Of a stretch of DNA of 64,000 nucleotides, positions 5,010 to 63,526 are shown piece after piece. The DNA is from an uncultured Gammaproteobacteria bacterium (GTDB lineage Bacteria > Patescibacteriota > Patescibacteriia > UBA11705 > JABHMO01), in contig CAZPYM010000003.1 in assembly GCA_964590105.1 (NCBI GenBank), positions 8,179 to 72,178 of the forward strand. The letters run 5' to 3'. The translations under genes and the position numbers were made by a program. The notes below the pieces were generated by a model that did not search any database, was not told the origin of the DNA, and saw only the letters and a program-made list of their open reading frames with translations. Position 1 is the stretch's first letter; every line of letters starts with the position of its first letter.

Positions 5010-5052
5010 TAAAATTGTAATTTGAATATTGACAATTAATGGAGGAAGAAAG

Positions 5053-5889
5053 ATGAAGGAATTCGTACTGGATTCTGTGACCAAGATGGATGCGGTGTGC
5101 TGGCTGTTTGTCCTGGCCTTTTTCTGCGGCTGCGCTCTGCTGTGCGGCGGTGATGTCAGAATGGCGTTCATCGGAGCCTGGGGCGTGATCGGCACGATGT
5201 TTCTGATCAGCGTCTCAATCGAGATGATCATCGAAACGCTGAAGAACATGCGCGGACTTGGGACTATCGTAGGATTCATTACAAATGGTCCGGAAGCCCT
5301 GTGTCTGATCGTCGGCTTACTGGCTGGCGACGTGCTGTTCGCGGCTTCCACGCCGCTCGGCTCGAACTTCATGAATCCAGTTCTTTTGGTGATTGCCGCG
5401 ATAGTGACAAAGCGAGCGATCGCTACCTGGCGGACGAACAGAGCGTACAGTCTGACCTGCATTGGACTCACGGCTGCATTTGCCGCGGAGTTTTATTTCC
5501 TGCCGGAAAAGCTTTATTGGATTTGGTGGGGAGCGGCGGCGATCATGACGGCTGTCCTGTTTTTTTGGCGGCCGAAAGAGAAAGAGCCTGAGAGCAAGGA
5601 AGAAGCCGCTTTTTCCAAGCTGTGGCTGATTCCCGCAGTGGCAGTAATGCTTACGGCCGGATATTTCCTGGATCCGGTCGTGTCATTCGCTTCGGCGCAA
5701 TCACATGCGCCGAAAAATCTCATCGGGTTCTTGGTTTTGGCCACGCTTACCAGCTGGCCGGAATTCAAGTCCTGCCTGGTCCTTTTCCGAAGGGGCCGAG
5801 TGCTCTCCGCGATTCTCAATATCACGGTGAGCAACATTACCAACATCTGGCTGGCAATGCTCGGTGCCGGGATCTACCTCGTTTTCTAA
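5053..5889 (+). CDS. multi-pass membrane protein, Ca2+/cation antiporter (CaCA)-like; GC-rich gene
   Basis: Start taken at the ATG (5053) preceded by GGAGGAAGAAAG, rather than the track's 5029. Two alpha-repeat-like segments, 'GFITNGPEALCLIVGLLAG' and 'ATLTSWPEF', resemble the G(T/S)SxPE motifs of YrbG/CaCA exchangers. GC content is visibly about 55%, against about 38% in the surroundings. Confidence 0.55.
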   Translation: MKEFVLDSVTKMDAVCWLFVLAFFCGCALLCGGDVRMAFIGAWGVIGTMFLISVSIEMIIETLKNMRGLGTIVGFITNGPEALCLIVGLLAGDVLFAASTPLGSNFMNPVLLVIAAIVTKRAIATWRTNRAYSLTCIGLTAAFAAEFYFLPEKLYWIWWGAAAIMTAVLFFWRPKEKEPESKEEAAFSKLWLIPAVAVMLTAGYFLDPVVSFASAQSHAPKNLIGFLVLATLTSWPEFKSCLVLFRRGRVLSAILNITVSNITNIWLAMLGAGIYLVF

Positions 5890-5952: not shown

Positions 5953-5981
5953 TTGACATTGCAAAGCCTGCCTGATATTAT
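5953..5981 (+). promoter_or_regulatory. consensus promoter TTGACA-N17-TATTAT driving a non-coding transcript
   Basis: ttgacattgcaaagcctgcctgatattat. No ORF with an RBS follows; a terminator lies about 200 nt downstream. Confidence 0.55.
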
Positions 5982-6214: not shown

Positions 6215-6275
6215 GGGTACTTAGCTCAGTCGGTTAGAGCGTACGGTTCACATCCGTAAGATCACAGGTTCGAGC
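6215..6275 (+). pseudogene. truncated tRNA-Val(CAC)-like 5' fragment (acceptor 5' half through T-loop; no 3' T-stem or acceptor strand)
   Basis: gggtact-ta-gctc-agtcggtta-gagc-g-tacgg-ttCACat-ccgta-agatc-acagg-ttcgagc is followed by ataatgcc..., not by cctgt + agtaccc. The cloverleaf cannot be closed. Confidence 0.55.
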
Positions 6276-6384
6276 ATAATGCCTCACGGTTTATAAATGG
6301 AAGCTAAAATCGATAAGATAGAGTTTAGTAGTTTTCGGTCTCCATGTCACTATTTATTAGGCAGTTAAATTTTTATAATTTTAT

Positions 6385-6971: not shown

Positions 6972-7048
6972 GGTTGCTTAGCTCAGTTGGTTAGAGCGCT
7001 GCACTCACATTGCAGAGGTCCTGGGTTCAAATCCCAGAGCAACCACCA
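6972..7048 (+). tRNA. tRNA-Val (anticodon CAC)
   Basis: Acceptor ggttgct/agcaacc, D-arm gctcagttggttagagc, anticodon stem-loop ctgca-ctCACat-tgcag, T-arm ctggg-ttcaaat-cccag, CCA encoded. Confidence 0.9.
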
Positions 7049-7136
7049 AACTTTTAATCATTTAAACAAAAAACATTTATTTACTACTGGTTTTACTTAT
7101 TTTTTTTATAATTCATTATTAATTTATATTTATTTT

Positions 7137-10100
7137 ATGAAGGAAAAATCGCTGTTTGCGCAAAATGAAGAAAAAATAATTAATTATTGGGAAGAGAAAA
7201 ATATTTTCCAAAAAACTTTGGACAAAAAATCAGCCAAAGGCAATTTTATTTTTTTTGAAGGCCCGCCGACCGCCAATGGGAAACCTGGTATTCATCATAT
7301 TCTAGCGCGCGCTTTCAAAGATGTTATTCCGCGGTTCAAAACAATGCAAGGCTATCATGTTGAAAGAAAAGCCGGCTGGGATACGCACGGCCTGCCGGTT
7401 GAGCTTCAGGTTGAAAAAGAACTGAAAATTTCTGGTAAACCGGACATTGAAAAATATGGGATTGAAGAATTTAATACTAAATGCAAGGAAAGCGTTTGGA
7501 AATATAAAAAAGAATGGGAAGAAATGACTCGACGGATTGCTTTTTGGTTGGACATGGAAGATCCATATGTCACTTATTCCAATGATTATATTGAAACGCT
7601 GTGGTGGATTTTGAGTGAAGCAAATAAAAAGGGTTTGGTTTATAAAGGTTACAAAGTTGTTCCTCAATGTCCGCGTTGCGGCACGGCTCTTTCTTCGCAC
7701 GAAGTGGCACAAGGTTACAAAAACGTGGAGGAAAATTCAGTTTATCTTAAATTCAAAGTTAAAGGCGAACAAAATACTTATATTCTTTCGTGGACAACAA
7801 CGCCGTGGACATTGCCCGGAAATGTGGCGCTCGCAGTTGGAGAAAAAATTGATTATGTGAAAGTTGATTATCAGGGAGACAAATTAATTTTAGCCAAGGC
7901 TTTGATTAATGATGTTTTTGACGGGCCAGTAAAAGTTGTTGAAGAAATAAAAGGAGCAGATTTGGTTGGCTTGGAATATGAACCATTGTTCCCGGGCGCA
8001 TTAGATCCCGGCGACAAAAAAGCCTGGTACGTTGGCAAGGCGGATTTTGTTTCAATTACAGACGGCACGGGCGTGGTGCATACGGCGGTAATGTATGGTG
8101 AAGATGATTTTCAATTTGGTTTGGAAAATGATTTGCCGTTTGTTCATACTGTGGAAGAAGACGGGACGTTCAAGCCGAGTGTTGCAAAGTGGGCGGGAAA
8201 GTTTGTCAAAGATCCGGAAGTTGAAAAACAAATTGTTAATGATTTAAAAGAACGCGGTTTATTATTCAAGGAAAAAATATACGCGCATGATTATCCTTTT
8301 TGCTGGCGTTGCGACAGTCCGCTCCTTTATTACGCGAAAGATTCTTGGTTTATAAAAATGACAGCCTTGAAAAATGAGATGATTGATAATAATGAGCAAA
8401 CCAACTGGGTGCCTGAACATATTAAGCACGGTCGTTTTGGTGAATGGTTGGAAAATATCAAAGACTGGGCAATTTCGCGGCAGCGATATTGGGGTACGCC
8501 GATCCCGATCTGGGAATGCGAAGATTGCAAAGCGTTTGAAGTGATTGGTAGTTTTGAAGATTTGGGCCAAAAAGCGTGTAAAAAAATTACCAGCCTGCTT
8601 TTTGTGAGACATGCGGAGAGCGAGAAAAACGTTCTGGGTTTTAAATCCTGTAGCTTAGACAAGCATCCGCTCACGAAAAAGGGAATTAAACAGGCGGAGC
8701 AAATGTCCGGACAATTGAACAAAGTTGATTTAATTATTTCGTCGCCGGTTTTGCGGGCGAGGCAAACGGCGGAAATAATAAGTAAAAAACTAAAAGTGGA
8801 GGTTGTTTTTGACGAATTGATTTCTGAGCATAATGTCGGGAAGTGGAATGATATTTTGAAAGAGGATTTGGAGAAAGATAATAAAGAGTATGGCGAATAC
8901 AGCCAGTTGCAGGGAGAACGAAAATATGATTTCAAGTCCGGCATTGATGGAGAATCTCGCCGGGAAGTTGTGGCGCGGGCAGAAAAATTTATAAAGAACG
9001 TAGTATCAAAGTACGCTGGTAAAACGGTCCTGATTGTTGGGCACGGTTGTACCTACGGAGCCTTTTCCAAAGTAATAAATAATTGCAGTTATGAGGAGTT
9101 TTTCCAAAAAGAAAACATTAAATTCCAAAACGTAAAAAGTTTTCAATTGGATGAGGATGGAAAATTGTTTGATCCGCACAAGCCGTTCATTGATTCATAT
9201 GAGTACGGTTGCAAATGCGGTGGCCGGATGAAGCGCGTGCCGGATGTTTTTGATTGTTGGTTTGATTCCGGCGCCATGCCTTTTGCTCAGTATCATTATC
9301 CGTTTGAAAATAAAAAATTAATTGACGCGGGCGAGCAGTATCCAGCGGAATATATTTCCGAAGCAATTGATCAGACGCGGGGCTGGTTTTACACTTTGCT
9401 CGCGATTTCCACTTTGCTTGGCAAGGGCGCCTGTTATAAAAATGTGATTTGCCTGGGGCATATTCGCGATAAGGAAGGAAAGAAAATGAGTAAATCAAAA
9501 GGCAATGTTATTGATCCCATGACAATCATTGACCAGTATGGAGTTGATGCTTTGCGCATGCATTTGTATACGATCAATCAGCCGGGCGATCCAAAGAATT
9601 TTGATGAGAACTCGGTTAAAGATGTTTTGCGGAAAACTGTAATGCTTCTTGGAAACGTGGTTAACTTCTATATGATGTATGGGGAAGGTAAAAGTCCAAA
9701 GATAAAAGGTAAAAGTAATAATGTGCTGGATGTATGGATCGGAGCAAAATTAAATTTGTTGATTCAAGATGTGACAAAAGATTTGGAAGATTATCATATT
9801 TTCGAGGCGGCCAGAAATATTATTGAATTTATTGATGAGCTTTCGACCTGGTACGTGCGGCGTTCGCGCGAGCGATTTAAAGCTGAGGGCGAAGATAAGG
9901 AAAATGCGGTGGCAACTTTGAATTTAGTTTTGGGTGAACTGGTGAAATTAATCGCGCCGTTTATGCCATTTGCCGCGGAAAGTTTTTATCAGAAACTTGG
10001 CAATGAAAAAGAATCAGTCCATTTGGAAGACTGGCCGGTGTTTGATGAAAAATTAATTGATGAAACTGTTTTGAAAGACATGGAATTAGCTCGGCAAGTT

Positions 10101-10583
10101 GTTGAACTTGGATTGTCTGCGCGTGATGAAAAACAAATTAAGGTTCGACAGCCATTGCAAACACTTGAATACGATGGAAAGAAATTTGACAAGGATTTAG
10201 AACAAATAATTGCGGAAGAGCTGAATGTTAAAAACGTTGAAAATGTAAAAGTTGTACAAGGTGATAATTTGGTTATCAAAGAAGCGGGGGGCGTTGTAGT
10301 TGGATTAAACATTGAATTAACTGAAGAACTTAAACTTGAAGGACTGGTTCGTGAATTAACTCGTCAGATAAACAATCTTCGCAAAAATCAGGGATTAACC
10401 AGGGATGATCAGGTTAAATTGATTTATAGCACAGAGGGCGAGCAGTTGAAAAAACTTTTTGCCAATGCCGAATCAGTTGAAAGGTTGAAGCAGGCGACTT
10501 TGTTGTCCGGAGTTGAAGAGGGTAAGGGAGCGAATAAGGTTAAAGTGAATGATGAAGAGGTTGAAGTAGAACTATTGAAATAA
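7137..10583 (+). CDS. ileS: isoleucine--tRNA ligase (type 2 / eukaryote-like IleRS) with an inserted histidine-phosphatase (PGAM-like) domain
   Basis: The track ORF (6987..) begins inside the tRNA-Val; the ATG at 7137 (MKEKSLFAQNEEKIINYWEE) is the plausible start. Class I motifs are present: 'PTANGKPGIHH' (HIGH), 'WDTHGLP', 'WISRQRYWGTPIPIW', 'DCWFDSGAMPFAQ', 'GIDQTRGWFYT', 'KMSKSKGN'. Between 'IGSFEDL' and 'DPHKPFID...CKCGGRMKRVP' lies a roughly 190-aa insert containing 'LLFVRHAESEKN...PLTKKGIKQAEQ...SSPVLRARQTAEII...LIVGHGCTYGAF'. Confidence 0.9.
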   Translation: MKEKSLFAQNEEKIINYWEEKNIFQKTLDKKSAKGNFIFFEGPPTANGKPGIHHILARAFKDVIPRFKTMQGYHVERKAGWDTHGLPVELQVEKELKISGKPDIEKYGIEEFNTKCKESVWKYKKEWEEMTRRIAFWLDMEDPYVTYSNDYIETLWWILSEANKKGLVYKGYKVVPQCPRCGTALSSHEVAQGYKNVEENSVYLKFKVKGEQNTYILSWTTTPWTLPGNVALAVGEKIDYVKVDYQGDKLILAKALINDVFDGPVKVVEEIKGADLVGLEYEPLFPGALDPGDKKAWYVGKADFVSITDGTGVVHTAVMYGEDDFQFGLENDLPFVHTVEEDGTFKPSVAKWAGKFVKDPEVEKQIVNDLKERGLLFKEKIYAHDYPFCWRCDSPLLYYAKDSWFIKMTALKNEMIDNNEQTNWVPEHIKHGRFGEWLENIKDWAISRQRYWGTPIPIWECEDCKAFEVIGSFEDLGQKACKKITSLLFVRHAESEKNVLGFKSCSLDKHPLTKKGIKQAEQMSGQLNKVDLIISSPVLRARQTAEIISKKLKVEVVFDELISEHNVGKWNDILKEDLEKDNKEYGEYSQLQGERKYDFKSGIDGESRREVVARAEKFIKNVVSKYAGKTVLIVGHGCTYGAFSKVINNCSYEEFFQKENIKFQNVKSFQLDEDGKLFDPHKPFIDSYEYGCKCGGRMKRVPDVFDCWFDSGAMPFAQYHYPFENKKLIDAGEQYPAEYISEAIDQTRGWFYTLLAISTLLGKGACYKNVICLGHIRDKEGKKMSKSKGNVIDPMTIIDQYGVDALRMHLYTINQPGDPKNFDENSVKDVLRKTVMLLGNVVNFYMMYGEGKSPKIKGKSNNVLDVWIGAKLNLLIQDVTKDLEDYHIFEAARNIIEFIDELSTWYVRRSRERFKAEGEDKENAVATLNLVLGELVKLIAPFMPFAAESFYQKLGNEKESVHLEDWPVFDEKLIDETVLKDMELARQVVELGLSARDEKQIKVRQPLQTLEYDGKKFDKDLEQIIAEELNVKNVENVKVVQGDNLVIKEAGGVVVGLNIELTEELKLEGLVRELTRQINNLRKNQGLTRDDQVKLIYSTEGEQLKKLFANAESVERLKQATLLSGVEEGKGANKVKVNDEEVEVELLK

Positions 10584-11918: not shown

Positions 11919-12168
11919 AGATTTTCAATTGTTCGTGATAAAAATCAACTCAAAAGTAAAGTGATTGTATTTTAACTTAAATCCAAGATTTTTTCAATGA
12001 ATTGCCCGGGGTTTGTCGGTGGAGTTTGTGATTATAGAAGGAAATTAGTTAATCCTCGATAAATTGAAGTTTGAAAGAGTTGATAAAAAAATATATGGTT
12101 TTTTTGTTGTATAATTACCATAATTTTGGAGCCAAAATGGAAATATGTGCGTACGCATAATCCAGCCC

Positions 12169-12197
12169 TTGACAAAATTATAGTTATGTGCTATACT
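12169..12197 (+). promoter_or_regulatory. consensus promoter TTGACA-N17-TATACT
   Basis: ttgacaaaattatagttatgtgctatact, immediately upstream of a roughly 600-nt GC-rich non-coding stretch. Confidence 0.55.
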
Positions 12198-12203
12198 GTG
12201 GGC

Positions 12204-12808
12204 GCGATTGTAGCTGATGAGAGCTGGCTACGCAACGTCTTTGTGAAGGGCTTCGGCACCCTAAATATGGGGTGCGGGAGCATGGTCAAAAACCTGCGGC
12301 GAAAAAGGAGGAAAGAATGTGTCGATAGAGGAAGCGTCTCGGAATTGTAAGCCGCCGAGGCGTGGATACAGGGGATGAAAATTCCTGAGGGTTTACCGGC
12401 GCAAGTGCATAAGCGCGCAATATGTGCGTGGGATGTGGCCTGTTGGATCAGTGAAAGCAAGTAAGCGGCCAGCAAAAAACTGAATGCCGTTTGAAAGCAA
12501 GTAATTGGGTTAATGGGCTCCCTGGTGACAGGGAATGACTGCATCCATGTCGGAGTCTCTTTCCCGTGGCTCGCGGCGGCTGTAATAGTCCACCGTAAAT
12601 CGCACTGGGAAATGTCAGGTTCCGGCGCGTCGTTAGGTTCGCCACCAAAGCACTCGAGGCGCAAGTTTGTCAGCGGCGCTGTGCCGGTTAAACAGCGAAA
12701 CTGAATAGGTTTTTCCTGGACGCCGAGAATGAGATCAGGACTCCGGACGCGGAGGCAAATAATACGTTTCTGGGACGAGTCGCAACATGCGGCTCGTCCC
12801 AATTTTTT
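12204..12808 (+). ncRNA. rnpB: candidate RNase P RNA (bacterial type A-like), possibly with leader/insertions
   Basis: A GC-rich block of ~600 nt (~55% GC) with no convincing ORF, framed by the promoter and a strong terminator (GGGACGAG-tcgcaacatgcgg-CTCGTCCC-aaTTTTTTT, 12772-12809). Several segments resemble conserved E. coli M1 RNA regions:
- AGGAGGAAAG, near CR-I GGAAAG
- GGAUCAGUGAAAGCAAGUAAGCGG, compared with GGAUCAGGUAAGGGUGAAAGGGUGCGGUAAGAGCG
- GGCUGUAAUAGUCCACCGUAAAUCGCAC, compared with GGCUGGUAACAGUCCGUGGCACGGUAAACUCCAC
- ACAGCGAAACUGAAUAGG, compared with GCAAGGCCAAAUAGGGG
- CAGGACUCCGGAC, compared with ACAGAACCCGGCU
The P4 pairing could not be verified by hand. Confidence 0.5.
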
Positions 12809-12962
12809 TGTTTGTAAAAAATGAAGTTTGTGATAGTATTAAAGAAGATAAGGTGGACTTCTTGGCCGTGCGGCGGATCGCCGCAAAAGCGTTGTTGAAT
12901 TTATAGTTTTTAATTTTGGATTTTGTTTGGACTTTGGACTTTGAACTTTGAGTTTTAAAAAT

Positions 12963-17642: not shown

Positions 17643-19139
17643 TTATGCAATGCCCTCTACGTATTCGGGCTTGCATTCGTCAATTGCAATCGGTCGCAGA
17701 ATGGCCTGCGCCTGTTCTGCCACTATTTGCGGTGTCAGTGTTGTGCCGCCTTTGATATAGATGACAAACTTCGTCGGCTGAAATAGGAAAATGTCCGCTG
17801 TCGGATCCATTTCACTCAGCCGTTGATACAGATCATCCATGCCGTTCAAGCGGTTGTCCTGTACCCTTGTTACTCCGAGATTAAACGTGTTGTTTTTCAT
17901 GTCACGATAGGTCGCGACAACCACATCAATCTCATCTCGGTAGTACCGACGAAGTTGATACCGGATTACCTTGCTCGTAAGCGTTGTTTCCGGCAATAGC
18001 GCAAAGGTCAGGCCGCCTGCCCTGGTAATCTGCGCCGTTTCGAGCAGTTTTTGTACTTTTCCTCGAATTGCCTTTTTGTGATGCCAGGCCTTCAGCATGA
18101 AAAGCCCGATCATGGTGCGAACCAGTTCCTGGTAGCTGTCGTCCGGCAGTAACCGGAGGATTTCCCAGGGCCCCTTTCGGAGAACCACGGGGACCACCTT
18201 GTTGTCTCGGCCGGCATTGAAATCAGCCAGCTGGTCAGTCAGCATCTGTCGAAAGCTACCGGTTTCAGTTGTTTCGCCAAAGGGCGAACCCTCGGCCTGC
18301 ATCTGATTCACGAAAGCCACAAGTTCTTTCAGGACTGGGTCGTCTTGAAGTTTTTCGTTTCGTTCGAAAACTACCTGTGTGGCGCTCGGAAGCACTGAAG
18401 CGTCAAAGCGTTCACACTGCTTTTGTACTGCTTCTCTCTCATTTGGCTTATTGGGCCAATCGCCCCAGGTGAGCAAAGTGAGATAAGTTGCAGTGAGTTT
18501 GTCGAACGAATCAATCTGATCCTCGGAAAACGGAGGCAGCTCGGTGGTCCGGCGTTGATTCTTGTGCCAGGCCTCGAGCATGATCAGCCCGACTGCCAGC
18601 TTTTCCTCGTCGCGAACCTCATTGGTCTCCACTTCAAGGTTGGCCACAAGATCAATCAATTCCCATGGACCTTTTTGCTCGGTAATCAAAATCACCGGCT
18701 CCTCGCGGCCCTGGTTGTATTCTTTCAACTGTTCATTGAAAGCTGACCGTAGTTTACGCGCGTCAGCGTCCTCGGTGTTAACTGAGCTACCGCTGTCCAC
18801 CCGATCTGTCAGAGACACTATGTCCCCGACAAATGGATCGTGGCTCAGCTCAGGAAATCTTTCAACAACGGTTCCCGCCGCGCTTGGCCAGCGTCGACGA
18901 TTTTGATGATGATCAAATTCAAATGTCCCAAACCGTCCGCCGGTATCTAGATGGACAACCCTTGTGTTTCGGTTCAAATCTCTCTCATAAAAACGCTTCC
19001 CCGGAGGTACGAAAACGTACTCCAGTCGGTAGTCGCTAATATGAAAACTATTTGCCAAAAGCCACAAGTAAGTTGTCGCAATGGAATCAAAATCCGGCGA
19101 CTGGTGATTCACCAGTATATACCGAGTTTCGGGATTCAT
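17643..19139 (-). CDS. DHH-family phosphoesterase-like N-terminal domain protein with an internally duplicated C-terminal domain; GC-rich
   Basis: 'LVNHQSPDFDSIATTY' (DHH motif I/II-like) and 'FEFDHHQN' (DHH motif III) are present. Two paralogous internal segments ('...KGPWELIDL...LEAWHKNQRR' and '...KGPWEILRL...LKAWHHKKAIR') are seen. GC is visibly about 50%. Confidence 0.5.
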   Translation of the reverse strand: MNPETRYILVNHQSPDFDSIATTYLWLLANSFHISDYRLEYVFVPPGKRFYERDLNRNTRVVHLDTGGRFGTFEFDHHQNRRRWPSAAGTVVERFPELSHDPFVGDIVSLTDRVDSGSSVNTEDADARKLRSAFNEQLKEYNQGREEPVILITEQKGPWELIDLVANLEVETNEVRDEEKLAVGLIMLEAWHKNQRRTTELPPFSEDQIDSFDKLTATYLTLLTWGDWPNKPNEREAVQKQCERFDASVLPSATQVVFERNEKLQDDPVLKELVAFVNQMQAEGSPFGETTETGSFRQMLTDQLADFNAGRDNKVVPVVLRKGPWEILRLLPDDSYQELVRTMIGLFMLKAWHHKKAIRGKVQKLLETAQITRAGGLTFALLPETTLTSKVIRYQLRRYYRDEIDVVVATYRDMKNNTFNLGVTRVQDNRLNGMDDLYQRLSEMDPTADIFLFQPTKFVIYIKGGTTLTPQIVAEQAQAILRPIAIDECKPEYVEGIA

Positions 19140-22121: not shown

Positions 22122-22796
22122 ATGAAGAAGTTTGCTCAGTATCTGTGTCTGGCGGGGATTCTTTTTGGATTTCTCTTCGTCGGTTCCTGCGCGTCGCAGG
22201 AAGACGAAGAAGATGCAACCGTTGTTCAGGAGGAGCTCAGTGTTCAGCTCACGATGGATAACGAACAGAACGTCGTCGCGGAGTTCAGCAACGGGCAGGC
22301 GGCTTACGGATGGGTCGAGTACGAGGAGATGGTGCAAAGCCTCTATGCAGAGGGCCAGTTTCTCACGAACGTGGCGATCCAGTATGAATCAAGCCCCGAA
22401 CAGACGTCTGTGGGCGACGGATTTGAAACGCAGCTGAATCCGCTTACCGTCAAGGTGCCGTTCACGTCATACTACATCACCATCACGAGCCCGCATAAGA
22501 ATTATGTTGGCGGGTGCATCGGTAAGACGGTAACGCATGTGAATTTCATCATCAACCAAAAAGGAGGAACGTTGTATTTGGATCTGCATCTCGCTGTTTG
22601 GATGAGCAATGGCAAGCCCTGCGTTGGTGTTTACATCACGCCTTCCAAGTGGTGCTCGAAAATCTGCGGGCCATCGATGGATCAGATCAGAAAGGCAATA
22701 AAATCAGCGTTGGTTGCCGCAGGTATCTCTGCCGCGGCGGCGGCTGTCATTGCCGAGGTCTTGGCACCCATCGGAGTGGCGGCGCTGGCGCTGTAA
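22122..22796 (+). CDS. putative lipoprotein, GC-rich
   Basis: Signal peptide with lipobox 'FLFVGSC', an Ala/Gly-rich hydrophobic C-terminus, and visibly high GC (about 55-60%). Confidence 0.5.
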   Translation: MKKFAQYLCLAGILFGFLFVGSCASQEDEEDATVVQEELSVQLTMDNEQNVVAEFSNGQAAYGWVEYEEMVQSLYAEGQFLTNVAIQYESSPEQTSVGDGFETQLNPLTVKVPFTSYYITITSPHKNYVGGCIGKTVTHVNFIINQKGGTLYLDLHLAVWMSNGKPCVGVYITPSKWCSKICGPSMDQIRKAIKSALVAAGISAAAAAVIAEVLAPIGVAALAL

Positions 22797-30746: not shown

Positions 30747-31376
30747 TTACACCCTTTCATTCCATGCCAGATCTTCCAGCCTGTCGTGGATTATCCGGAA
30801 TAGAGGCATAGTCAAAAACACATTATCCTCCGTGTGTTCGAGATGGAATTTTTCGATTCCTTCGAAAAAGCGAATCGAGCGTGTCCGCTCGAAAGTGCCT
30901 CTGACGGTCTGCGTGAGGGCTGCGAGGCACTGGTTTAGCGCATCTGTCCACGCCTTTGATACAACATCAGCATGGGCGCTGACAAACGATTGGAGCACTT
31001 GAAGTGCCCGTCCGCGGCTGTAATCGCCGCGGACGGGCATGGGCTCATGGCCGAACTCATGCAACTTGTCGCCGAGCTTGAACAGCTCGTTGGCAAGCAT
31101 GGCTTTGAGTTCGGCCTGTTCGGGAAGGGCGGCCTCGGGCCCGGCGAAGAATTTCTTCAGCTTCTCGTTAAAATGAATGTTCAAGTCGGGGATTTTTTCG
31201 TCCCGGAACTTCACTACGAGGCAAGGCTCCGACAAGATAGCCTCAATATAGGAGGTGAGATCCTGGCGAAATTGTTCGGGCAGATCTTTTCTGTCTTGAA
31301 TTACCGTGCAAAGAAGCAGTGCAGTGTCTTCGCAGTTTACCTCGCCATGAAAATTCGCAACTAAAGTGTATAACAT
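30747..31376 (-). CDS. hypothetical protein (contains HEFGH); GC-rich
   Basis: The start is taken at the ATG (MLYTLVANFHGE) preceded by AAAGGAGG, rather than the track's 31457. It contains 'LHEFGHEP' (an HExxH-like motif). GC is visibly above 50%. Confidence 0.45.
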   Translation of the reverse strand: MLYTLVANFHGEVNCEDTALLLCTVIQDRKDLPEQFRQDLTSYIEAILSEPCLVVKFRDEKIPDLNIHFNEKLKKFFAGPEAALPEQAELKAMLANELFKLGDKLHEFGHEPMPVRGDYSRGRALQVLQSFVSAHADVVSKAWTDALNQCLAALTQTVRGTFERTRSIRFFEGIEKFHLEHTEDNVFLTMPLFRIIHDRLEDLAWNERV

Positions 31377-31396
31377 TTGCGGTCCTCCTTTGATTT

Positions 31397-31738
31397 TTAT
31401 TTCCACGGTGACGAATATAAATTGTCCAGCGCCTGGGCGAAAAACTGCAAGTCCCACATGATGGTTTTGTAAATCGGCAGGTCCGGTAGTTGTTGATCTC
31501 CGAAGGCGAGTTTTTGCCGGAATTTGTGGAAAGTCCAGTCATGAATGTGCTCGGCGTATCTCATTTTGACAGCCAGTCCGGCTACATCGCAAGTCAGTGT
31601 CTGGTATAGAAACTCGTCGATCAGAAGCCGCTTCCATTTGGGAATGAGGTCTGACTGAGCAATAAAACCGGCGAGAACGTCCCATTTTTGTCTGGCAAAT
31701 TCGTCTAAAATGAAAGGCTTTTCGTAATTATGTGACAT
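31397..31738 (-). CDS. hypothetical protein; GC-rich, co-transcribed with 30747..31376
   Basis: 113-aa ORF with a 20-nt gap to the downstream gene that contains its SD. No motif recognised. Confidence 0.45.
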   Translation of the reverse strand: MSHNYEKPFILDEFARQKWDVLAGFIAQSDLIPKWKRLLIDEFLYQTLTCDVAGLAVKMRYAEHIHDWTFHKFRQKLAFGDQQLPDLPIYKTIMWDLQFFAQALDNLYSSPWK

Positions 31739-41925: not shown

Positions 41926-41954
41926 TTGACAGTCAAAGCCAGATATCATACGAT
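41926..41954 (+). promoter_or_regulatory. promoter TTGACA-N17-TACGAT
   Basis: ttgacagtcaaagccagatatcatacgat, upstream of the GC-rich MBL gene. Confidence 0.5.
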
Positions 41955-42027
41955 TAAATTGAGAGATGCTGGTCTCTCGCGCCCAATGCTCCTGTCCTTC
42001 GCCTGTAAGCCGCGAAAGGAGGGCAAG

Positions 42028-43017
42028 ATGAGGGTAACAACCTACGGTACCAGGGGATCAATCCCCATTGCGAACGCAAAAAGTGTCAGGTACGGCGGTA
42101 ACACCACCTGCTTGCGGGTGGAATCATGTTGTTTGCCGGATGGCCAGTGGTTGATCATTGATGCCGGTTCCGGCTATGTTCCGGCGTCGACAGATGCTTT
42201 GAAAAGTGGAGTGAAGCAGGTCAACCTGTTCTTCACCCACCATCACCACGATCACAATCAGGGACTGCCCCTGTCTCCTTTGACCTTTATCAAAGCCATT
42301 CCGGTCCATGTGTACGGGCCGGTGGATAATGGTTGGGGGCCGAAGGAAGTGATCGAATCTGTCATGCAAAAACCGGTTTTTCCGGTACCTTTCAAGATCG
42401 TGGCTTCGCACTTTCACTTCCACCGGTTGGAGTATCCGACAACCCTGGTGATCTTGATCCACCCGCGCGGCGGCTTCAAGACACTCGGCGTGGATGTGTT
42501 TGAGCGGCTCCTTGCCAAAGGAGAGCCCATTCCTTTCAGACAAAAGATGTCGTTCCCCGTGGCGGAATGTCTGGTGGTCTGGATGCATCGCACTGATCAT
42601 CCGGAAGCCACCATTTCGTACCGCTTTGAGGAGCGTCCGACAGGCAAAGTGTTTTGCCTGCTGACAGATCATGAAAACCAGGACGGAGTGCCGCAGAGCC
42701 TGCTCGCTCACCTGGCGAATGCGGATTTCCTGATTCAAGACGCCCAGTATGATCCGGACACGTACGCGAAAAGGACGGCCGGCTTTGGCCACGCCACTCC
42801 CACGTACGCAGTTCGCCTGGCTAATCAGGCTGGGGTTAAGAAGCTGGGATTCACCCACCACGATCCGGGCGCTGACGACGAGGCAGTGGACAGGATCGTG
42901 GAGATCGGACGAACTCTGGCCAAAGAGGCACGGGAAGACGACGGCAAAAAGAAGAGCAATCTTCTTCAGCCGGCTGACATCTTTGCCTGCGCCGATTATC
43001 AGGTTTACGAAGTCTAA
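42028..43017 (+). CDS. MBL-fold metallo-hydrolase (RNase Z/PhnP-like); GC-rich gene
   Basis: The start is taken at the ATG (MRVTTYGTRGS) preceded by AAAGGAGGG. 'THHHHDHNQGLP' is the HxHxDH motif. GC is visibly about 58%. The antisense ORF 42124..42861 is considered spurious. Confidence 0.6.
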   Translation: MRVTTYGTRGSIPIANAKSVRYGGNTTCLRVESCCLPDGQWLIIDAGSGYVPASTDALKSGVKQVNLFFTHHHHDHNQGLPLSPLTFIKAIPVHVYGPVDNGWGPKEVIESVMQKPVFPVPFKIVASHFHFHRLEYPTTLVILIHPRGGFKTLGVDVFERLLAKGEPIPFRQKMSFPVAECLVVWMHRTDHPEATISYRFEERPTGKVFCLLTDHENQDGVPQSLLAHLANADFLIQDAQYDPDTYAKRTAGFGHATPTYAVRLANQAGVKKLGFTHHDPGADDEAVDRIVEIGRTLAKEAREDDGKKKSNLLQPADIFACADYQVYEV

Positions 43018-45599: not shown

Positions 45600-45920
45600 T
45601 TAAGAATATTGTTCCAGGTATTTCCTGGGATTTACGCGGCCATTCGGCCGCGACGTTCGCTGAGTGATGTTTCCGGCCAGCTCACCGGTCTGGCAGTTGC
45701 CGGCTTCGTCGAGCTGACGCAGGATCCGGATGACTTCATCGTTGTTCATGCACGGTTCTTGGTTAAACCCCCGGCTTTCATCCGGCGACTTTGGCGGCAG
45801 TTTACCGCGTTCCGAGGAATCATCCTGCTTGTCCGCTGATGTCTGCTTGGCAGAGAGTTCGCCGGCAAACGTACCGAGAAAAAAACAACAGAGCAGTGCC
45901 GTCCACAGGATTTTGGTCAT
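45600..45920 (-). CDS. small secreted protein (signal peptide); GC-rich
   Basis: 'MTKILWTALLCCFFLGTFAGELSA' signal peptide; GC about 57%; no motif. Confidence 0.45.
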   Translation of the reverse strand: MTKILWTALLCCFFLGTFAGELSAKQTSADKQDDSSERGKLPPKSPDESRGFNQEPCMNNDEVIRILRQLDEAGNCQTGELAGNITQRTSRPNGRVNPRKYLEQYS

Positions 45921-50243: not shown

Positions 50244-50840
50244 TTAGAAGCTGAACTTGACGCCGAAGAGGGAATTTTTCGGATCAAACTTAGCCTTTTC
50301 GCTGGCAAGTGGCGCCCAGCTGGCCCAGAGTGTGGCCTTGCCGACCGTAACTTCAGCCAGCGGACCTACTCCGGATGGACGTCGATCTTTGAGACCTATC
50401 GTCAGATAGGGAAGAACTTTGTACTTTAACGCTAGGTCGTACCAGAGAGCAGAGTCGTCACCGCTGTAGGCAACTTTTCCCGCTTCTACGATTCCGAGGA
50501 AGCTGACCTTGTCGTGGCCCAGCCAAAGCGAGTAGGCTGTTCGCAGGTCGAAACCTTCAACGCCCTGTTCCATGCCGACACTCAGTCCGAGCGTCATCCA
50601 GTCGGTGGGCGACCATTCCGGCCCGGCATAGGCTTCTGCCCAGCCGGCGGTAGTCAGGAAAAAGCTGCTGACTGACCAGTGCGAATCGAGCTTGTGCGTG
50701 AGGTAGCTGTCTACCGTTAGGCTTTTGAAAGCCTTGGGCGTCGCAGACTGCAACTCTCCGAAGCCTCTCGTCTGGGCGGTAGCGGTAAGGGATGCGCAAA
50801 GGTAAACAAGTACAGTCAGCGGCTGGAGGAACTTTCTCAT
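50244..50840 (-). CDS. outer-membrane beta-barrel-like protein (signal peptide, C-terminal ...GVKFSF); GC-rich
   Basis: The start is taken at the ATG (MRKFLQPLTVLVYLCASLTATAQT) preceded by AAGGGAG. The protein shows alternating hydrophobic beta-strand-like segments and ends in an aromatic residue (F), as OMPs do. GC is about 57%. A TTGACA-N17-TACAAT promoter lies on the minus strand at 50937-50965. Confidence 0.45.
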   Translation of the reverse strand: MRKFLQPLTVLVYLCASLTATAQTRGFGELQSATPKAFKSLTVDSYLTHKLDSHWSVSSFFLTTAGWAEAYAGPEWSPTDWMTLGLSVGMEQGVEGFDLRTAYSLWLGHDKVSFLGIVEAGKVAYSGDDSALWYDLALKYKVLPYLTIGLKDRRPSGVGPLAEVTVGKATLWASWAPLASEKAKFDPKNSLFGVKFSF

Positions 50841-51020
50841 AATTTTCTCCCTTTGCCCCTTGGGGCTTTGCAAAAGTTATTTAATGAACCGCACTTAAGA
50901 TGGATTGTCTCCTTGACTTTCTCATCTTGACATTGCATTGTATCACGAAATGGGCATTTTGTCAATGTCGGCTCAACAAATATTATTTCTCATTGTCTAA
51001 ATATAAATAAAAAAATGCTG

Positions 51021-51986: not shown

Positions 51987-52454
51987 CTATCTTTGTACGC
52001 TGATTGCCGCGCCGCCTTCCGGGTCGCAGGCGCCGATTGTCAGAGTGCCGGTTGCCGCTCTCATCATGTAATAATCAGTCATAGCGGCTGTACCTGTGCT
52101 CGGATCCATTGGCACTAACGGAAGATAGCCTTCTGTCGCAAGCGCGGTAAGATCAGCGCAGGCCGCTTGAGTTACTTGCGCGGTGCAGCCAGCATCGCCA
52201 CCAGCGGCGCAGGTGCCGATGGTGTAAAAACTACCGGCTGTTAAGTTGGCAATAGCCGCGACATAGGTGCCGCCGTTGTCAACCTGGTCCAGCTTAGCTG
52301 AGTCCAAAACAGCTGCCACATCGCTCCAGCGCTCTGCATCGCGAGCATCCTGAAAACGAGTCAGCGGATCAAGCGCGACAAAAACAATCACTGCCAAGAT
52401 TGCAATAATGGCAATGACAATTAATAACTCAATTAATGTAAAACCTTTTTTCAT
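51987..52454 (-). CDS. type IV pilin (prepilin-type N-terminal cleavage/methylation domain)
   Basis: The start is taken at MKKGFTLIELLIVIAIIAILA (class III signal, G|FTLIE). 'ARDAERWSDVAAVLDSAKL' is the pilin-fold motif. Confidence 0.75.
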   Translation of the reverse strand: MKKGFTLIELLIVIAIIAILAVIVFVALDPLTRFQDARDAERWSDVAAVLDSAKLDQVDNGGTYVAAIANLTAGSFYTIGTCAAGGDAGCTAQVTQAACADLTALATEGYLPLVPMDPSTGTAAMTDYYMMRAATGTLTIGACDPEGGAAISVQR

Positions 52455-52543
52455 AGATTTTGGCTTATTTATATTAGTAATTATTTTGTTTGAATAGTAT
52501 AGCATTTTTTCCTTTGTTTGTAAAAACGTTTTATCAACAAGCT

Positions 52544-62934: not shown

Positions 62935-63060
62935 GGGGGAATTGGAAAGTTGAAACTGGAAATTAGAAATTAGAAACTAGGGTCGAGGTTGGAAATTGAA
63001 ATTAGAAATTGGGGTTGAGGGGTACAAAAAAATCTAATTTAACCCTAATCTCCAGTTTCA
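62935..63060. repeat. intergenic repeat cluster (gaaactggaaatt / gaaattagaaa / ggggttgagg units and their inverted copies)
   Basis: Related copies occur at 61605-61700 and 63465-63530 (for example 'ctaatttccagtttcaaatttctagtttc' against 'ctaatctccagtttcaaatttctggtttc'). An inverted repeat GGTTGAGG...CTTCAACC lies at 61634-61671. Confidence 0.7.
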
Positions 63061-63464
63061 AATTTCTGGTTTCTGGTTGCTGTTTTTTTTCGATCCAGTT
63101 GTGATTTTATTAGGCCGTTCAGTTTAATTAAAATTTGTTCACTTAAGCCAATCGTTTTTTTAAATTTTTCTTTATCAATAAAGCCTCTCTCATAAAATAG
63201 TTCCAGCCAATGTCGTGATTCTAATAATGAGCCGCGAGCGTTATAATAAAATTTGTTTTTGTCCCCATAATGGAATCTTCCATATCCTTCGGCAATGTTT
63301 GCCCCGACCGAATCAGTGCTTCTAACTGCCTGATCGCCCATGATTTTTTTCATTTGCCAATCTAGCGTTTTGTAAATCTCCCAAACCAATACGCTATGTT
63401 CACGAGCTAATTTATATACATCTAAATTACATAATTCAACATAATCACGTTTTTTATTTTCCAT
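63045..63464 (-). CDS. four-helix-bundle protein (TIGR02436 / bAvd-like family), inserted between ABC transporter genes
   Basis: 'IAEGYGRFHYGDKNKFYYNARGSLLESRHW'. The start is taken at MENKKRDYVELCNL, and the gene is flanked on both sides by the repeat family above. Confidence 0.65.
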   Translation of the reverse strand: MENKKRDYVELCNLDVYKLAREHSVLVWEIYKTLDWQMKKIMGDQAVRSTDSVGANIAEGYGRFHYGDKNKFYYNARGSLLESRHWLELFYERGFIDKEKFKKTIGLSEQILIKLNGLIKSQLDRKKTATRNQKFETGD

Positions 63465-63526
63465 AGTAGTTTTATTTGAAAATTTTAGTTTCAACCCTAA
63501 TTTCCAGTTTCAAATTTCTAGTTTCT

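Follow-up and report, generated by a model that had tools for sequence, protein, structure and literature searches.

A GC-rich unit in a Kuenenbacteria-like bacterium of the Candidate Phyla Radiation probably yields a species-specific RNA of about 600 nt that is not RNase P RNA

A stretch of roughly 600 nt in the genome of a Kuenenbacteria-like bacterium of the Candidate Phyla Radiation (CPR; Patescibacteria) is framed by transcription signals and was proposed, in the original prediction, to be an independently transcribed non-coding unit carrying motifs of RNase P RNA. The stretch lies in a 64-kb piece of DNA, all of which was analyzed here and which we call the window, and its neighbors encode IleRS, a 4Fe-4S protein, a DUF218 protein, a NIF3-like protein and an MFS transporter. 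The host occurs in SRR8437217, SRR8437218 and SRR8437287 and in the JGI samples 3300028191 and 3300028168. The locus raises the question of whether the unit is an RNase P RNA, an RNA of another kind, a disguised or decayed protein gene, or functionless DNA that happens to be transcribed.

In order to assess the transcription signals, we compared the predicted promoter with the rest of the window. The promoter matches the consensus at 11 of 12 positions, with an extended -10 TG at 12189-90, and is predicted to start transcription at about position 12204 on the plus strand. Promoters of comparable quality occur 18 times in the window, where 2.1 would be expected by chance (an approximately 8-fold enrichment), and 13 of the 18 sit 7 to 325 nt upstream of a gene on the same strand, which indicates that a promoter this good is informative in this genome. 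The terminator stem has 9 GC pairs among its 14 bp and a pair probability of 0.96. The GC content of the body (positions 12204-12770) was 0.533, against 0.304 in the left flank, 0.362 in the right flank and 0.414 in the window, and the edges of this step fall at the promoter and the terminator. The framing of a GC-rich stretch by a promoter and a terminator, as originally described, was thus borne out. High GC alone is not distinctive of the unit, since the window contains about nine islands with a GC content of at least 0.5. Those checked for gene calls, at 30747, 45600, 50244 and 51987, were called as protein genes, and the remaining islands show coding periodicity or Pfam matches. The island at 45600-45920 was considered as a second RNA and rejected; it is a minus-strand gene for a small secreted protein with its own promoter, ribosome-binding site (RBS) and terminator.

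Table 1. Features of the unit and its immediate surroundings (positions in the window)
Feature	Positions	Strand	Details
Predicted sigma-70-type promoter	12169-12197	+	TTGACA 12169-12174, 17 nt, TATACT 12192-12197
Open 203-aa frame antisense to the unit	12191-12802	-	Open end to end
Body of predicted non-coding transcript	12204-12770	+	GC 0.533, purine-rich
Very stable 13-bp hairpin, 5' region	12248-12283	+	GCUUC-G-GCACCCUA AAUA UGGGGUGC-G-GGAGC
Shine-Dalgarno AAGGAGG, AUG 12317, two codons, UAG (Met-Cys-Arg-stop)	12305-12328	+	Read from sequence
Best-supported structured arm	12431-12546	+	Long stem, symmetric A-rich internal loop, GUGA-capped hairpin 12519-12534
13-mer UGAAAGCAAGUAA, copy 1	12452-12464	+	
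13-mer UGAAAGCAAGUAA, copy 2	12492-12504	+	Faces copy 1 across arm 12431-12546
P14-like hairpin CGGCUG-UAA-UAGUCC	12573-12596	+	Resembles E. coli P14
CR-V-like string CAGGACUCCGGAC	12736-12748	+	Best partner 12546-12559, -15.5 kcal/mol, not CR-I-like region
Intrinsic terminator	12771-12809	+	14-bp stem 12771-12801, then T-run 12803-12809
Spacer with promoter block of downstream DUF218 gene	12803-12947	+	TTTGTAAAAA...TGTGATAGTATT

We next considered whether the plus strand could encode a protein. The three plus-strand frames of the unit contain 4, 14 and 9 stops, and an alternative genetic code was rejected because TAA or TAG occurs besides TGA among the stops of every frame. The period-3 power of the unit was 1.58 (P = 0.14), compared with 3.7 to 12.7 for every one of the 12 complete genes above 400 nt that were tested in the window and 0.4 to 0.6 for rRNA and E. 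coli RNase P RNA (M1). A Pfam search of all six frames at an E value of 1 or less gave no match. In independent assemblies, the gene callers of JGI and Logan placed no gene in the interval of the unit; other GC-rich islands were called.

Folding predictions were then examined arm by arm and for the body as a whole. The 5' hairpin at 12248-12283 has a predicted energy of -23.2 kcal/mol and a z-score of -5.95 on the plus strand (none of 200 shuffles was as good) and -3.91 on the minus strand. The larger arm at 12431-12546 gave -3.51 on the plus strand (again 0 of 200) and -1.12 on the minus strand, with helix probabilities of 0.90 to 0.99 except for a single apical helix of 3 bp (0.49). Five arms were tested for plus-strand stability, and the other three were not significant. 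These two arms are thus predicted to fold significantly and strand-specifically. The symmetric A-rich internal loop of the larger arm is formed by the two identical copies of UGAAAGCAAGUAA; by our own arithmetic, about 0.003 identical 13-mer pairs would be expected by chance in 605 nt. Internal duplication of the unit was not significant. Helices predicted to link the two ends over long range had probabilities of 0.7 to 0.99. The fold of the whole body, with z-scores of -2.75 on the plus strand and -0.93 on the minus strand, is not exceptional; GC-rich protein-coding regions of the window, used as controls, scored -3.7, -4.7 and -5.9, and in a reduced scan of fold z-scores the measure did not discriminate.

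No relative of the unit was found in any collection searched. Searches by blastn of phage and plasmid collections gave no match, nor did viral collections. Degenerate DNA probes made from the translations of the 203-aa antisense frame and of a 69-aa plus-strand frame found nothing in GTDB species genomes, JGI metagenomes or IMG/VR; such probes reach only sequences that are at least about 85% identical at the nucleotide level, and the host organism itself is evidently missing from the metagenome collection. The twin-13-mer pattern matched 36 times in GTDB genomes, always in unrelated tandem repeats, and these matches were discarded. We found no literature on large non-coding RNAs in Patescibacteria or Kuenenbacteria.

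The DUF218-NIF3-MFS block is conserved in relatives, where a conserved GC-rich gene for a 182-aa protein of no known family (MNDRKNVCY...; 49 to 61% protein identity across relatives) lies upstream of it. This gene is absent here. The unit is located at a rearrangement junction and has no counterpart at the equivalent position in relatives. We considered the unit as a decayed copy of the 182-aa gene and rejected this, as there was no translated or nucleotide similarity and no nhmmer match; a chain alignment of the unit with the family gave a z-score of about 0, compared with 18 for the positive control. On the other side, orthologues of the left-hand 4Fe-4S neighbor (84, 73 and 66% identity) are the only gene that their loci have in common with the window, and they are preceded by ordinary small protein operons, in which nhmmer found nothing like the unit. 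The spacer downstream of the unit is conserved with one relative, L051, and is outside the RNA unit; homology with L051 begins at the T-run of the terminator.

The position of the unit resembles that of the GC-rich ORFan cassettes of the clade, with the same slot, a strong promoter, a GC-rich body, a terminator and then the DUF218 promoter block. The RBS, the open frame and the period-3 signal of 9 to 11 that mark these cassettes are missing from the unit (the 182-aa family itself scores 9.2 to 10.8), and no sequence is held in common. Location at a rearrangement junction in the cassette slot means that the unit could be recently acquired or non-functional DNA. It may be a transcribed relic of a GC-rich ORFan gene cassette, or newly acquired transcribed DNA without function, an explanation that we regard as unlikely though deserving of serious weight. 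Relatives carry such protein cassettes upstream of DUF218, and the one in L051, which adjoins DUF218, has both an RBS and a terminator and precedes the same DUF218 promoter block. Many of the strongest promoters of the window drive GC-rich ORFan genes, homologues were found nowhere in the collections searched, and the global fold is unexceptional. A perfect Shine-Dalgarno sequence and AUG are also kept at 12305-12319, followed by two codons only; within the Shine-Dalgarno sequence, positions 12306-12309 are predicted to pair with UCCU at 12714-12717 with a probability of 0.93. Against a relic stand the absence of any residual period-3 signal, the 4, 14 and 9 stops in the plus-strand frames, the lack of similarity to the 182-aa family and the predicted strand-specific stability of two arms. 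In addition, GC is held at 0.53 between non-coding flanks of 0.30 to 0.36, which would require either a very recent arrival or selection.

The minus strand contains the only long frame, of 203 aa, running from 12802 to 12191. It is open across the whole region, a length matched by only 24 of 3,000 composition-matched dinucleotide shuffles (0.8%), and its translation contains one hydrophobic stretch; both speak for an ORFan protein. However, it has no ATG start, and neither an RBS nor a promoter was seen on the minus strand; the sole start is a TTG within the terminator hairpin of the plus strand. Its codon log-odds were -0.24, compared with a minimum of +0.06 for real genes, it lacks a period-3 signal, and its composition (Cys 4.9%, Pro 8.8%, Lys 2.9%) is typical of a pyrimidine-rich antisense strand. 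The frame was called in no assembly, matched no Pfam family, and had no homologue in exhaustive searches of 5.8 billion protein clusters and of 1.84 billion representative proteins (full HMMER). We therefore consider a minus-strand protein very improbable; in our judgment the frame is not a gene, and it is most readily accounted for as a by-product of the pyrimidine-rich antisense strand. The earlier statement that the region has no credible ORF holds, given the absent periodicity, the poor codon statistics and the lack of protein similarity, with the qualification that it is correct for the plus strand and under-reported the end-to-end open frame on the minus strand. A protein-coding frame with homologues, named beforehand as what would speak against an RNA, was looked for by six-frame Pfam and two protein searches, and none was found. 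Together, the class of the promoter, the terminator, the sharp GC edges, the lack of coding periodicity and the lack of protein similarity support the general claim of an independently transcribed non-coding unit of about 600 nt.

The specific reading as RNase P RNA fared differently. Every RNase P-like string quoted in its favor is present in the unit: GGAUCAG at 12445, GUGAAAG at 12451, GUAAGCGG at 12461, GGCUGUAAUAGUCC at 12578, GUAAAUCGCAC at 12595, CUGAAUAGG at 12701 and CAGGACUCCGGAC at 12736. The likeness to E. coli M1 is also measurable, as a collinear alignment scored 186 for the unit and 150 +/- 8 for shuffles (z = 4.4); among the controls, about 90 comparisons in all, z was at most 2.7 and the rRNA maximum was 172. 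When the score was instead weighted by the consensus at 141 conserved positions, the unit gave 201.8 and shuffles 196.3 +/- 8.0 (z = 0.7), within the range of rRNA pieces (188 to 218) and far from true M1 (410). The excess similarity to M1 is real but sits at E. coli-specific positions at which members of the family differ from one another, for instance in the P14 stem, which is in lower case in the Rfam consensus and hence variable. Much of the RNase P-like impression can be traced to the P14-like hairpin at 12573-12596. The resemblance to M1 therefore stands as a measurable one and does not extend to the conserved positions of the family.

We then searched for the defining features of the molecule. 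The proposed comparison with Rfam was made, and no model matched the unit even at an E value of 10 or less; for the whole window, only tRNAs and noise were returned. The class A (RF00010), class B and archaeal RNase P models gave no match at the gathering score, nor at an E value of 10 or less with an 801-nt slice or the whole window, a cutoff that corresponds to about 10 to 20 bits, such that an RNase P match of 5 to 15 bits would escape listing; the E. coli RNase P control scored 318.6 bits. The universal core of class A RNase P RNA consists of CR-I, GAGGAAAGUCC, and CR-V, ACAGAA...GGCUUA, and helix P4 is formed by the 3' half of CR-I with CR-V. GAGGAAAGUCC, ACAGAA and GGCUUA are absent from the unit, and a scan of 12100-12900 as DNA found none of GAGGAAAGTCC, ACAGAA and GGCTTA. 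Of CR-I, only GGAGGAAAG is present, at 12307, and the string that had been taken for the CR-I motif is the Shine-Dalgarno string of Table 1. The duplex of 12310-12326, directly after this CR-I-like GGAGGAAAG, with the 3' tail at 12726-12770 was predicted at -7.5 kcal/mol, compared with -6.9 +/- 2.1 for shuffles (35% of which did as well) and -14.2 for E. coli. According to these energies, the P4 pseudoknot could not form in the unit. Transfer of the M1 pairs through a sequence-only alignment, a crude test, left 51 of 109 canonical (shuffles, 45.4 +/- 6.4, maximum 64; rRNA pieces, 45.7 +/- 5.8, maximum 65), and 3 of the 8 P4 pairs were kept. With no model match, no core strings and no P4, the RNase P reading is not supported; the unit is not RNase P RNA.

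A highly diverged type A RNase P RNA with expansions, as found in some CPR genomes, deserves separate consideration. In 10 of 35 circular CPR genomes the RNase P RNA fell below Rfam thresholds, and among these RNAs some carry greatly extended helices or lack helices (Lui, Nielsen and Arkin 2021, PMC8172020). The unit shares with these precedents the organism group and the failure to reach Rfam thresholds (PMC8172020). It also resembles RF00010 and E. coli M1 in being an RNA gene that stands alone and is GC-rich where the genome is AT-rich, and GGAGGAAAG, AUAG, GGAUCAG, a P14-like CGGCUG-UAA-AGUCC, GUAAA, GAAUGA and CAG.AC.CCGG are ordered as in M1 (in the unit and RNase P RNA alike, GGAGGAAAG, AUAG, GAAUGA and CAGGAC-CCGG keep this order). 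The collinear M1 score exceeds that of every control, and no rnpB was detected elsewhere within the window. However, the unit has none of the tested core features that the diverged CPR molecules (PMC8172020) would share, is about 200 nt longer than class A RNase P RNA and is apparently confined to one species. It matched no model even at the permissive E value, its consensus-weighted score (202, with 410 for true M1) lay inside the range of the rRNA controls, its helices after structure transfer were within noise, the P4 energy was close to that of shuffles, and the best partner of the CR-V-like strand is misplaced for the topology of RNase P. Furthermore, an essential housekeeping RNA should have recognizable relatives, and none were found. 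The diverged reading is close to refuted, and we give it hardly any credence.

We find it equally improbable that the unit is a cis-regulatory RNA or long 5' leader belonging to the DUF218 (SanA/YdcF-like) gene. That gene lies on the same strand 140 nt downstream, and the terminator could in principle serve as an attenuator for it. However, the terminator is strong with no obvious antiterminator beside it; a promoter-like block (TTGTAA, 16 nt, TAGTAT with TG) separates it from DUF218 and is kept in L051, where the upstream neighbor is a protein gene; no such leader precedes the DUF218 orthologues of three relatives; and no riboswitch or T-box model matched.

Other known RNA classes were examined in the same way. 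No tmRNA was found in the window by ARAGORN or among Rfam matches, and group I and group II intron models did not match the unit, which, unlike an intron, lies outside any gene, between a promoter and a terminator of its own. The OLE, ROOL and GOLLD models gave no match at an E value of 10 or less. The unit is like these RNAs in its size of about 600 nt, its independent transcription, its non-coding nature and a GC content above that of its surroundings. Typical neighbors of OLE, ROOL and GOLLD are OLE-associated protein genes and a phage or tRNA context; the unit lacks them (about 5 kb separate it from the nearest tRNA), its whole-body fold score is unexceptional, and it has no family of homologues and hence no structure supported by covariation.

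These observations suggest that the unit probably makes a species-specific RNA. The reading that we favor, with a probability of roughly 55%, is a stand-alone, lineage-specific non-coding RNA gene of the Kuenenbacteria-like bacterium, with an RNA of about 600 nt. In this gene, the near-consensus promoter would start transcription at about 12204 and the strong intrinsic terminator would end the RNA at about 12808. The RNA would be produced and stable, its ends would be joined by the long-range helices into a multi-arm body, and it would act in trans. Our best guess at a mechanism, held with low confidence, is a protein-binding or self-associating scaffold, and the likeliest site of interaction, held no more firmly, may be the symmetric A-rich internal loop of the twin UGAAAGCAAGUAA 13-mers. 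A fuller version, in which a functional, lineage-restricted large structured RNA of an undescribed class and of the size of OLE or ROOL replaced the small-protein gene and binds a dimeric protein or self-associates through the twin-13-mer loop, is speculative, and we think it distinctly unlikely. A role as an antisense RNA against translation-initiation regions of the window was considered and rejected; the best duplex (-54 kcal/mol) was within the range of shuffled RNAs, whose best duplexes averaged -49 and reached -57 kcal/mol with RNAduplex, which is crude on long sequences.

The analysis bears on how such loci are read. Non-conserved positions can produce a collinear and statistically real likeness to E. 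coli RNase P RNA, which here vanished once only the family-conserved positions and the P4 pairing were tested. What tells RNA genes apart from GC-rich ORFan protein genes in this genome is three-base periodicity; a high GC content or a low folding z-score does not. The practical value of the unit is limited at present, as it is known from one uncultured species, has no relatives for comparison and carries no pointer to function. If real and functional, it would join a very short list of large non-coding RNAs that have been proposed for the Candidate Phyla Radiation, and since CPR genomes are tiny, 600 bases of highly expressed non-coding sequence would, if true, represent a notable investment.

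The unit, a GC-rich stretch of about 600 nt at window positions 12204 to 12808 on the + strand, had been proposed from sequence alone to be a non-coding transcript framed by a promoter and a strong terminator. Our analysis confirmed a distinct GC-rich non-coding unit with both signals: a sigma-70-type promoter and a terminator are present, the GC content is 0.533 inside versus 0.304 and 0.362 in the flanks, and both GC steps fall at these signals. Near-consensus promoters (at least 11 of 12 matches) are enriched in the window, with 18 sites where chance predicts 2.1, and a same-strand gene begins 7 to 325 nt downstream of 13 of these sites; transcription of the unit from ~12204 is therefore a well-supported prediction. 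We consider the unit to be a putative stand-alone, lineage-specific and partly structured non-coding RNA, with a probability of roughly 0.55. The original prediction also had a broader fallback, some other large structured RNA, which is possible but unproven. The -35 region of the promoter (12164-12176) and positions +37 to +49 of the putative RNA (12240-12252) form a 13-nt inverted repeat with 92% complementarity; since the first arm is not transcribed, any role of this repeat would be at the DNA level.

Coordinates of features in the window and in the loci of relatives (L051, L052 and L053)
Feature	Location	Strand	Characteristics
Sigma-70-type promoter	12169-12197	+	TTGACA, 17 nt, TATACT; extended -10 TG
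Hairpin	12248-12283	+	fold z=-6.0 on +, -3.9 on -
Structured arm	12431-12546	+	fold z=-3.5 on +, -1.1 on -
Terminator	12771-12801	+	14-bp stem, 9 GC pairs; then seven Ts
Eight further GC-rich islands	5029-5889, 17643-19139, 22122-22796, 30747-31457, 41926-43017, 45600-45920, 50244-50873, 51987-52505		GC 0.50-0.56 in 0.41 genome
Small GC-rich gene, 106 aa	45600-45920	-	consensus promoter 45992-45964, GGAGGAG-N5-ATG, terminator 45581-45566
~182-aa gene	L051 3257-3805; L052 ~898-1443; L053 1935-2489		upstream of DUF218-NIF3-MFS block
~60-aa conserved companion protein	L051 2907-3101; L053 1651-1827		beside ~182-aa gene

The full unit folds at -232 kcal/mol (z=-3.9), to which the terminator contributes part; without the terminator, the z-score of the body was -2.75 for the + strand and -0.93 for the - strand. 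Because GC-rich protein-coding controls from the window folded with lower z-scores than this body (-3.7, -4.7 and -5.9), global stability is non-discriminating here. Locally, the structured arm and the hairpin stand out in a strand-specific manner, and none of the three other arms is exceptional on the + strand. Within the structured arm, identical 13-mers, UGAAAGCAAGUAA, lie face to face at 12452 and 12492 and are predicted to form a symmetric A-rich internal loop, and predicted long-range helices (probabilities 0.7 to 0.99) join both ends of the unit. No unusual antisense targets of the unit were detected among translation-initiation regions in the window.

All eight further GC-rich islands are apparently protein genes, several of them without a Pfam match; many have a near-consensus promoter in front and a terminator at the end, and their fold z-scores are strongly negative, down to -5.9 (the piece at 30800), so that such scores are useless for spotting RNA genes here. 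The 106-aa gene, whose product has a signal-peptide-like N-terminus, shows what to expect of a real small ORFan cassette in this genome. Elsewhere in the window, an isoleucyl-tRNA synthetase-like protein of 1198 aa (6987-10583, +) carries an inserted histidine phosphatase domain (PF00300, aa 537-707, E=2.5e-31) that splits the class I synthetase domain into two stretches; the JGI annotation likewise names this domain, and tRNA-Val(CAC) (6972-7048) adjoins the start of the ORF. A weak tRNA-model match at 6215-6285 (+; 33.8 bits, barely over the gathering score), absent from ARAGORN output and 234 nt downstream of a consensus promoter (5953-5981), may be an unusual or degenerate tRNA. A 149-aa protein with PF05635 (23S rRNA intervening-sequence protein) is encoded at 63045-63494 (-) between ABC-transporter genes.

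The 4Fe-4S protein encoded to the left of the unit shares 84% identity with a protein assigned to Candidatus Kuenenbacteria, and its next matches are from Parcubacteria/Patescibacteria, which indicates that the window comes from a CPR bacterium. Its three nearest orthologues have no other gene in common with the window and are preceded by small protein operons. On the right, Candidatus Kuenenbacteria (L051), L052 and Candidatus Falkowbacteria (L053) all share the block of DUF218, NIF3-like and MFS genes, and in these loci the slot 5' of DUF218 holds a conserved GC-rich protein of ~182 aa (MNDRKNVCY...; 49-61% identity among the three loci) without a Pfam match. In L051 its gene is equipped with a good RBS and with a terminator, after which comes the DUF218 promoter block that the window also has. 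Neither this protein nor its ~60-aa companion was found anywhere in the 64-kb window. Since the slot differs and homology to L051 begins exactly at the terminator T-run, we infer that the whole unit, promoter and terminator hairpin included, is lineage-specific DNA at a rearrangement junction. L051 also has a consensus promoter at 782-810 (TTGACA, 17 nt, TATTAT with TG), followed by ~1.6 kb without a called gene. This region (782-2400) has no Rfam match at E<=1 and no sequence relationship to the candidate, and may represent a further non-coding element; a ~90-nt piece of it (roughly 1574-1667) is conserved at L053 602-691 (nhmmer E=5e-8).

Homologues of the candidate were sought with degenerate multi-seed probes based on two reading phases, with a twin-13-mer probe, with nhmmer on every fetched locus, and with blastn. 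These searches, which reach fairly close relatives only, returned none from GTDB species genomes, JGI metagenomes, IMG/VR, phages or plasmids. Five independent assemblies of the source organism carry the region at 100% identity; in L001 and L002, the two whose flanks are long enough to judge, gene callers left the interval empty.

An unlikely explanation, but one that carries some weight, is that the unit is a transcribed relic or non-functional cassette. A relic of the relatives' slot genes is disfavored, as neither the ~182-aa nor the ~60-aa gene resembles the candidate in nucleotide or translated sequence. Three-base periodicity was the cleanest discriminator among the coding tests. The candidate scored 1.58 (p=0.14), below the 3.7 to 12.7 of all 12 whole window genes >400 nt tested, GC-rich ORFans included; the 182-aa family scored 9.2 to 10.8, and E. 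coli RNase P RNA (M1), 16S and 23S RNA scored 0.4 to 0.6. On the coding tests taken together, the region is not a gene, nor one that decayed recently.

A protein gene on the minus strand is very improbable. A single frame of 203 aa is open from end to end there, a length matched in only 24 of 3,000 dinucleotide shuffles, but it lacks an ATG start, an RBS and a promoter, its codon log-odds are -0.24 (minimum +0.06 among 39 training genes), and its amino-acid composition is of the kind that a pyrimidine-rich antisense strand typically gives. It had no Pfam match and no relative among 5.8 billion protein clusters, nor among 1.84 billion representatives searched with full HMMER. The + frames contain 4, 14 and 9 stops, and all six frames, with stops masked, gave no Pfam match at E<=1. 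The view that the unit holds no credible ORF thus stands, and no conserved coding frame with homologues emerged from Pfam for any of the six frames or from the two protein collections for the 203-aa frame.

The original suggestion that the unit may be an RNase P RNA is not supported, and we regard this identity as highly improbable. Rfam searches of an 801-nt slice and of the whole window, at the gathering score and at E<=10, gave no RNase P match. The candidate was tested past this negative because Lui et al. 2021 (PMC8172020) report that, among 35 circular CPR genomes, 10 have an RNase P RNA that scores under Rfam thresholds, and that large helix extensions occur in some of these RNAs. The RNase P-like strings quoted in the prediction are all present, and in collinear alignment with cheap gaps the impression of likeness to authentic M1 proved measurably right: the candidate scored 186 against 150 +/- 8 for shuffles (z=4.4; 0 of 300 as high), with shared blocks in RNase P order. 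The reverse complement scored 133, GC-rich coding controls 129-152 and rRNA pieces at most 172, and about 90 control comparisons in all gave z<=2.7. However, this likeness fails tests of family-defining features. On 141 conserved positions of the class A consensus (RF00010), the candidate scored 201.8 versus 196 +/- 8 for shuffles (z=0.7), 188-218 for rRNA pieces and 410 for true M1; its matches fall on E. coli-specific, variable positions, among them the P14 stem, which the consensus writes in lower case. Transfer of the M1 structure (101 Rfam pairs and 8 P4 pairs) gave 51 canonical pairs, close to shuffles (45 +/- 6) and rRNA pieces (46 +/- 6). The P4 pairing fared no better: the duplex between the segment 3' of GGAGGAAAG and the 3' tail has an energy of -7.5 kcal/mol, near shuffles (-6.9 +/- 2.1), whereas the E. 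coli duplex reaches -14.2. The best partner of the CR-V-like strand is 12546-12559, the wrong topology for RNase P, and the core strings GAGGAAAGUCC, ACAGAA and GGCUUA are absent from the candidate. The CR-I-like string doubles as a perfect Shine-Dalgarno sequence and AUG, followed by a two-codon frame.

That the unit is a leader of DUF218, the gene to its right, is equally improbable; the unit ends in its own terminator. Explanations outside these five readings have a small share of the probability. The unit is an orphan in an uncultured organism, with no handle on function, but its limits are well defined and such a feature is unusual in a reduced genome.
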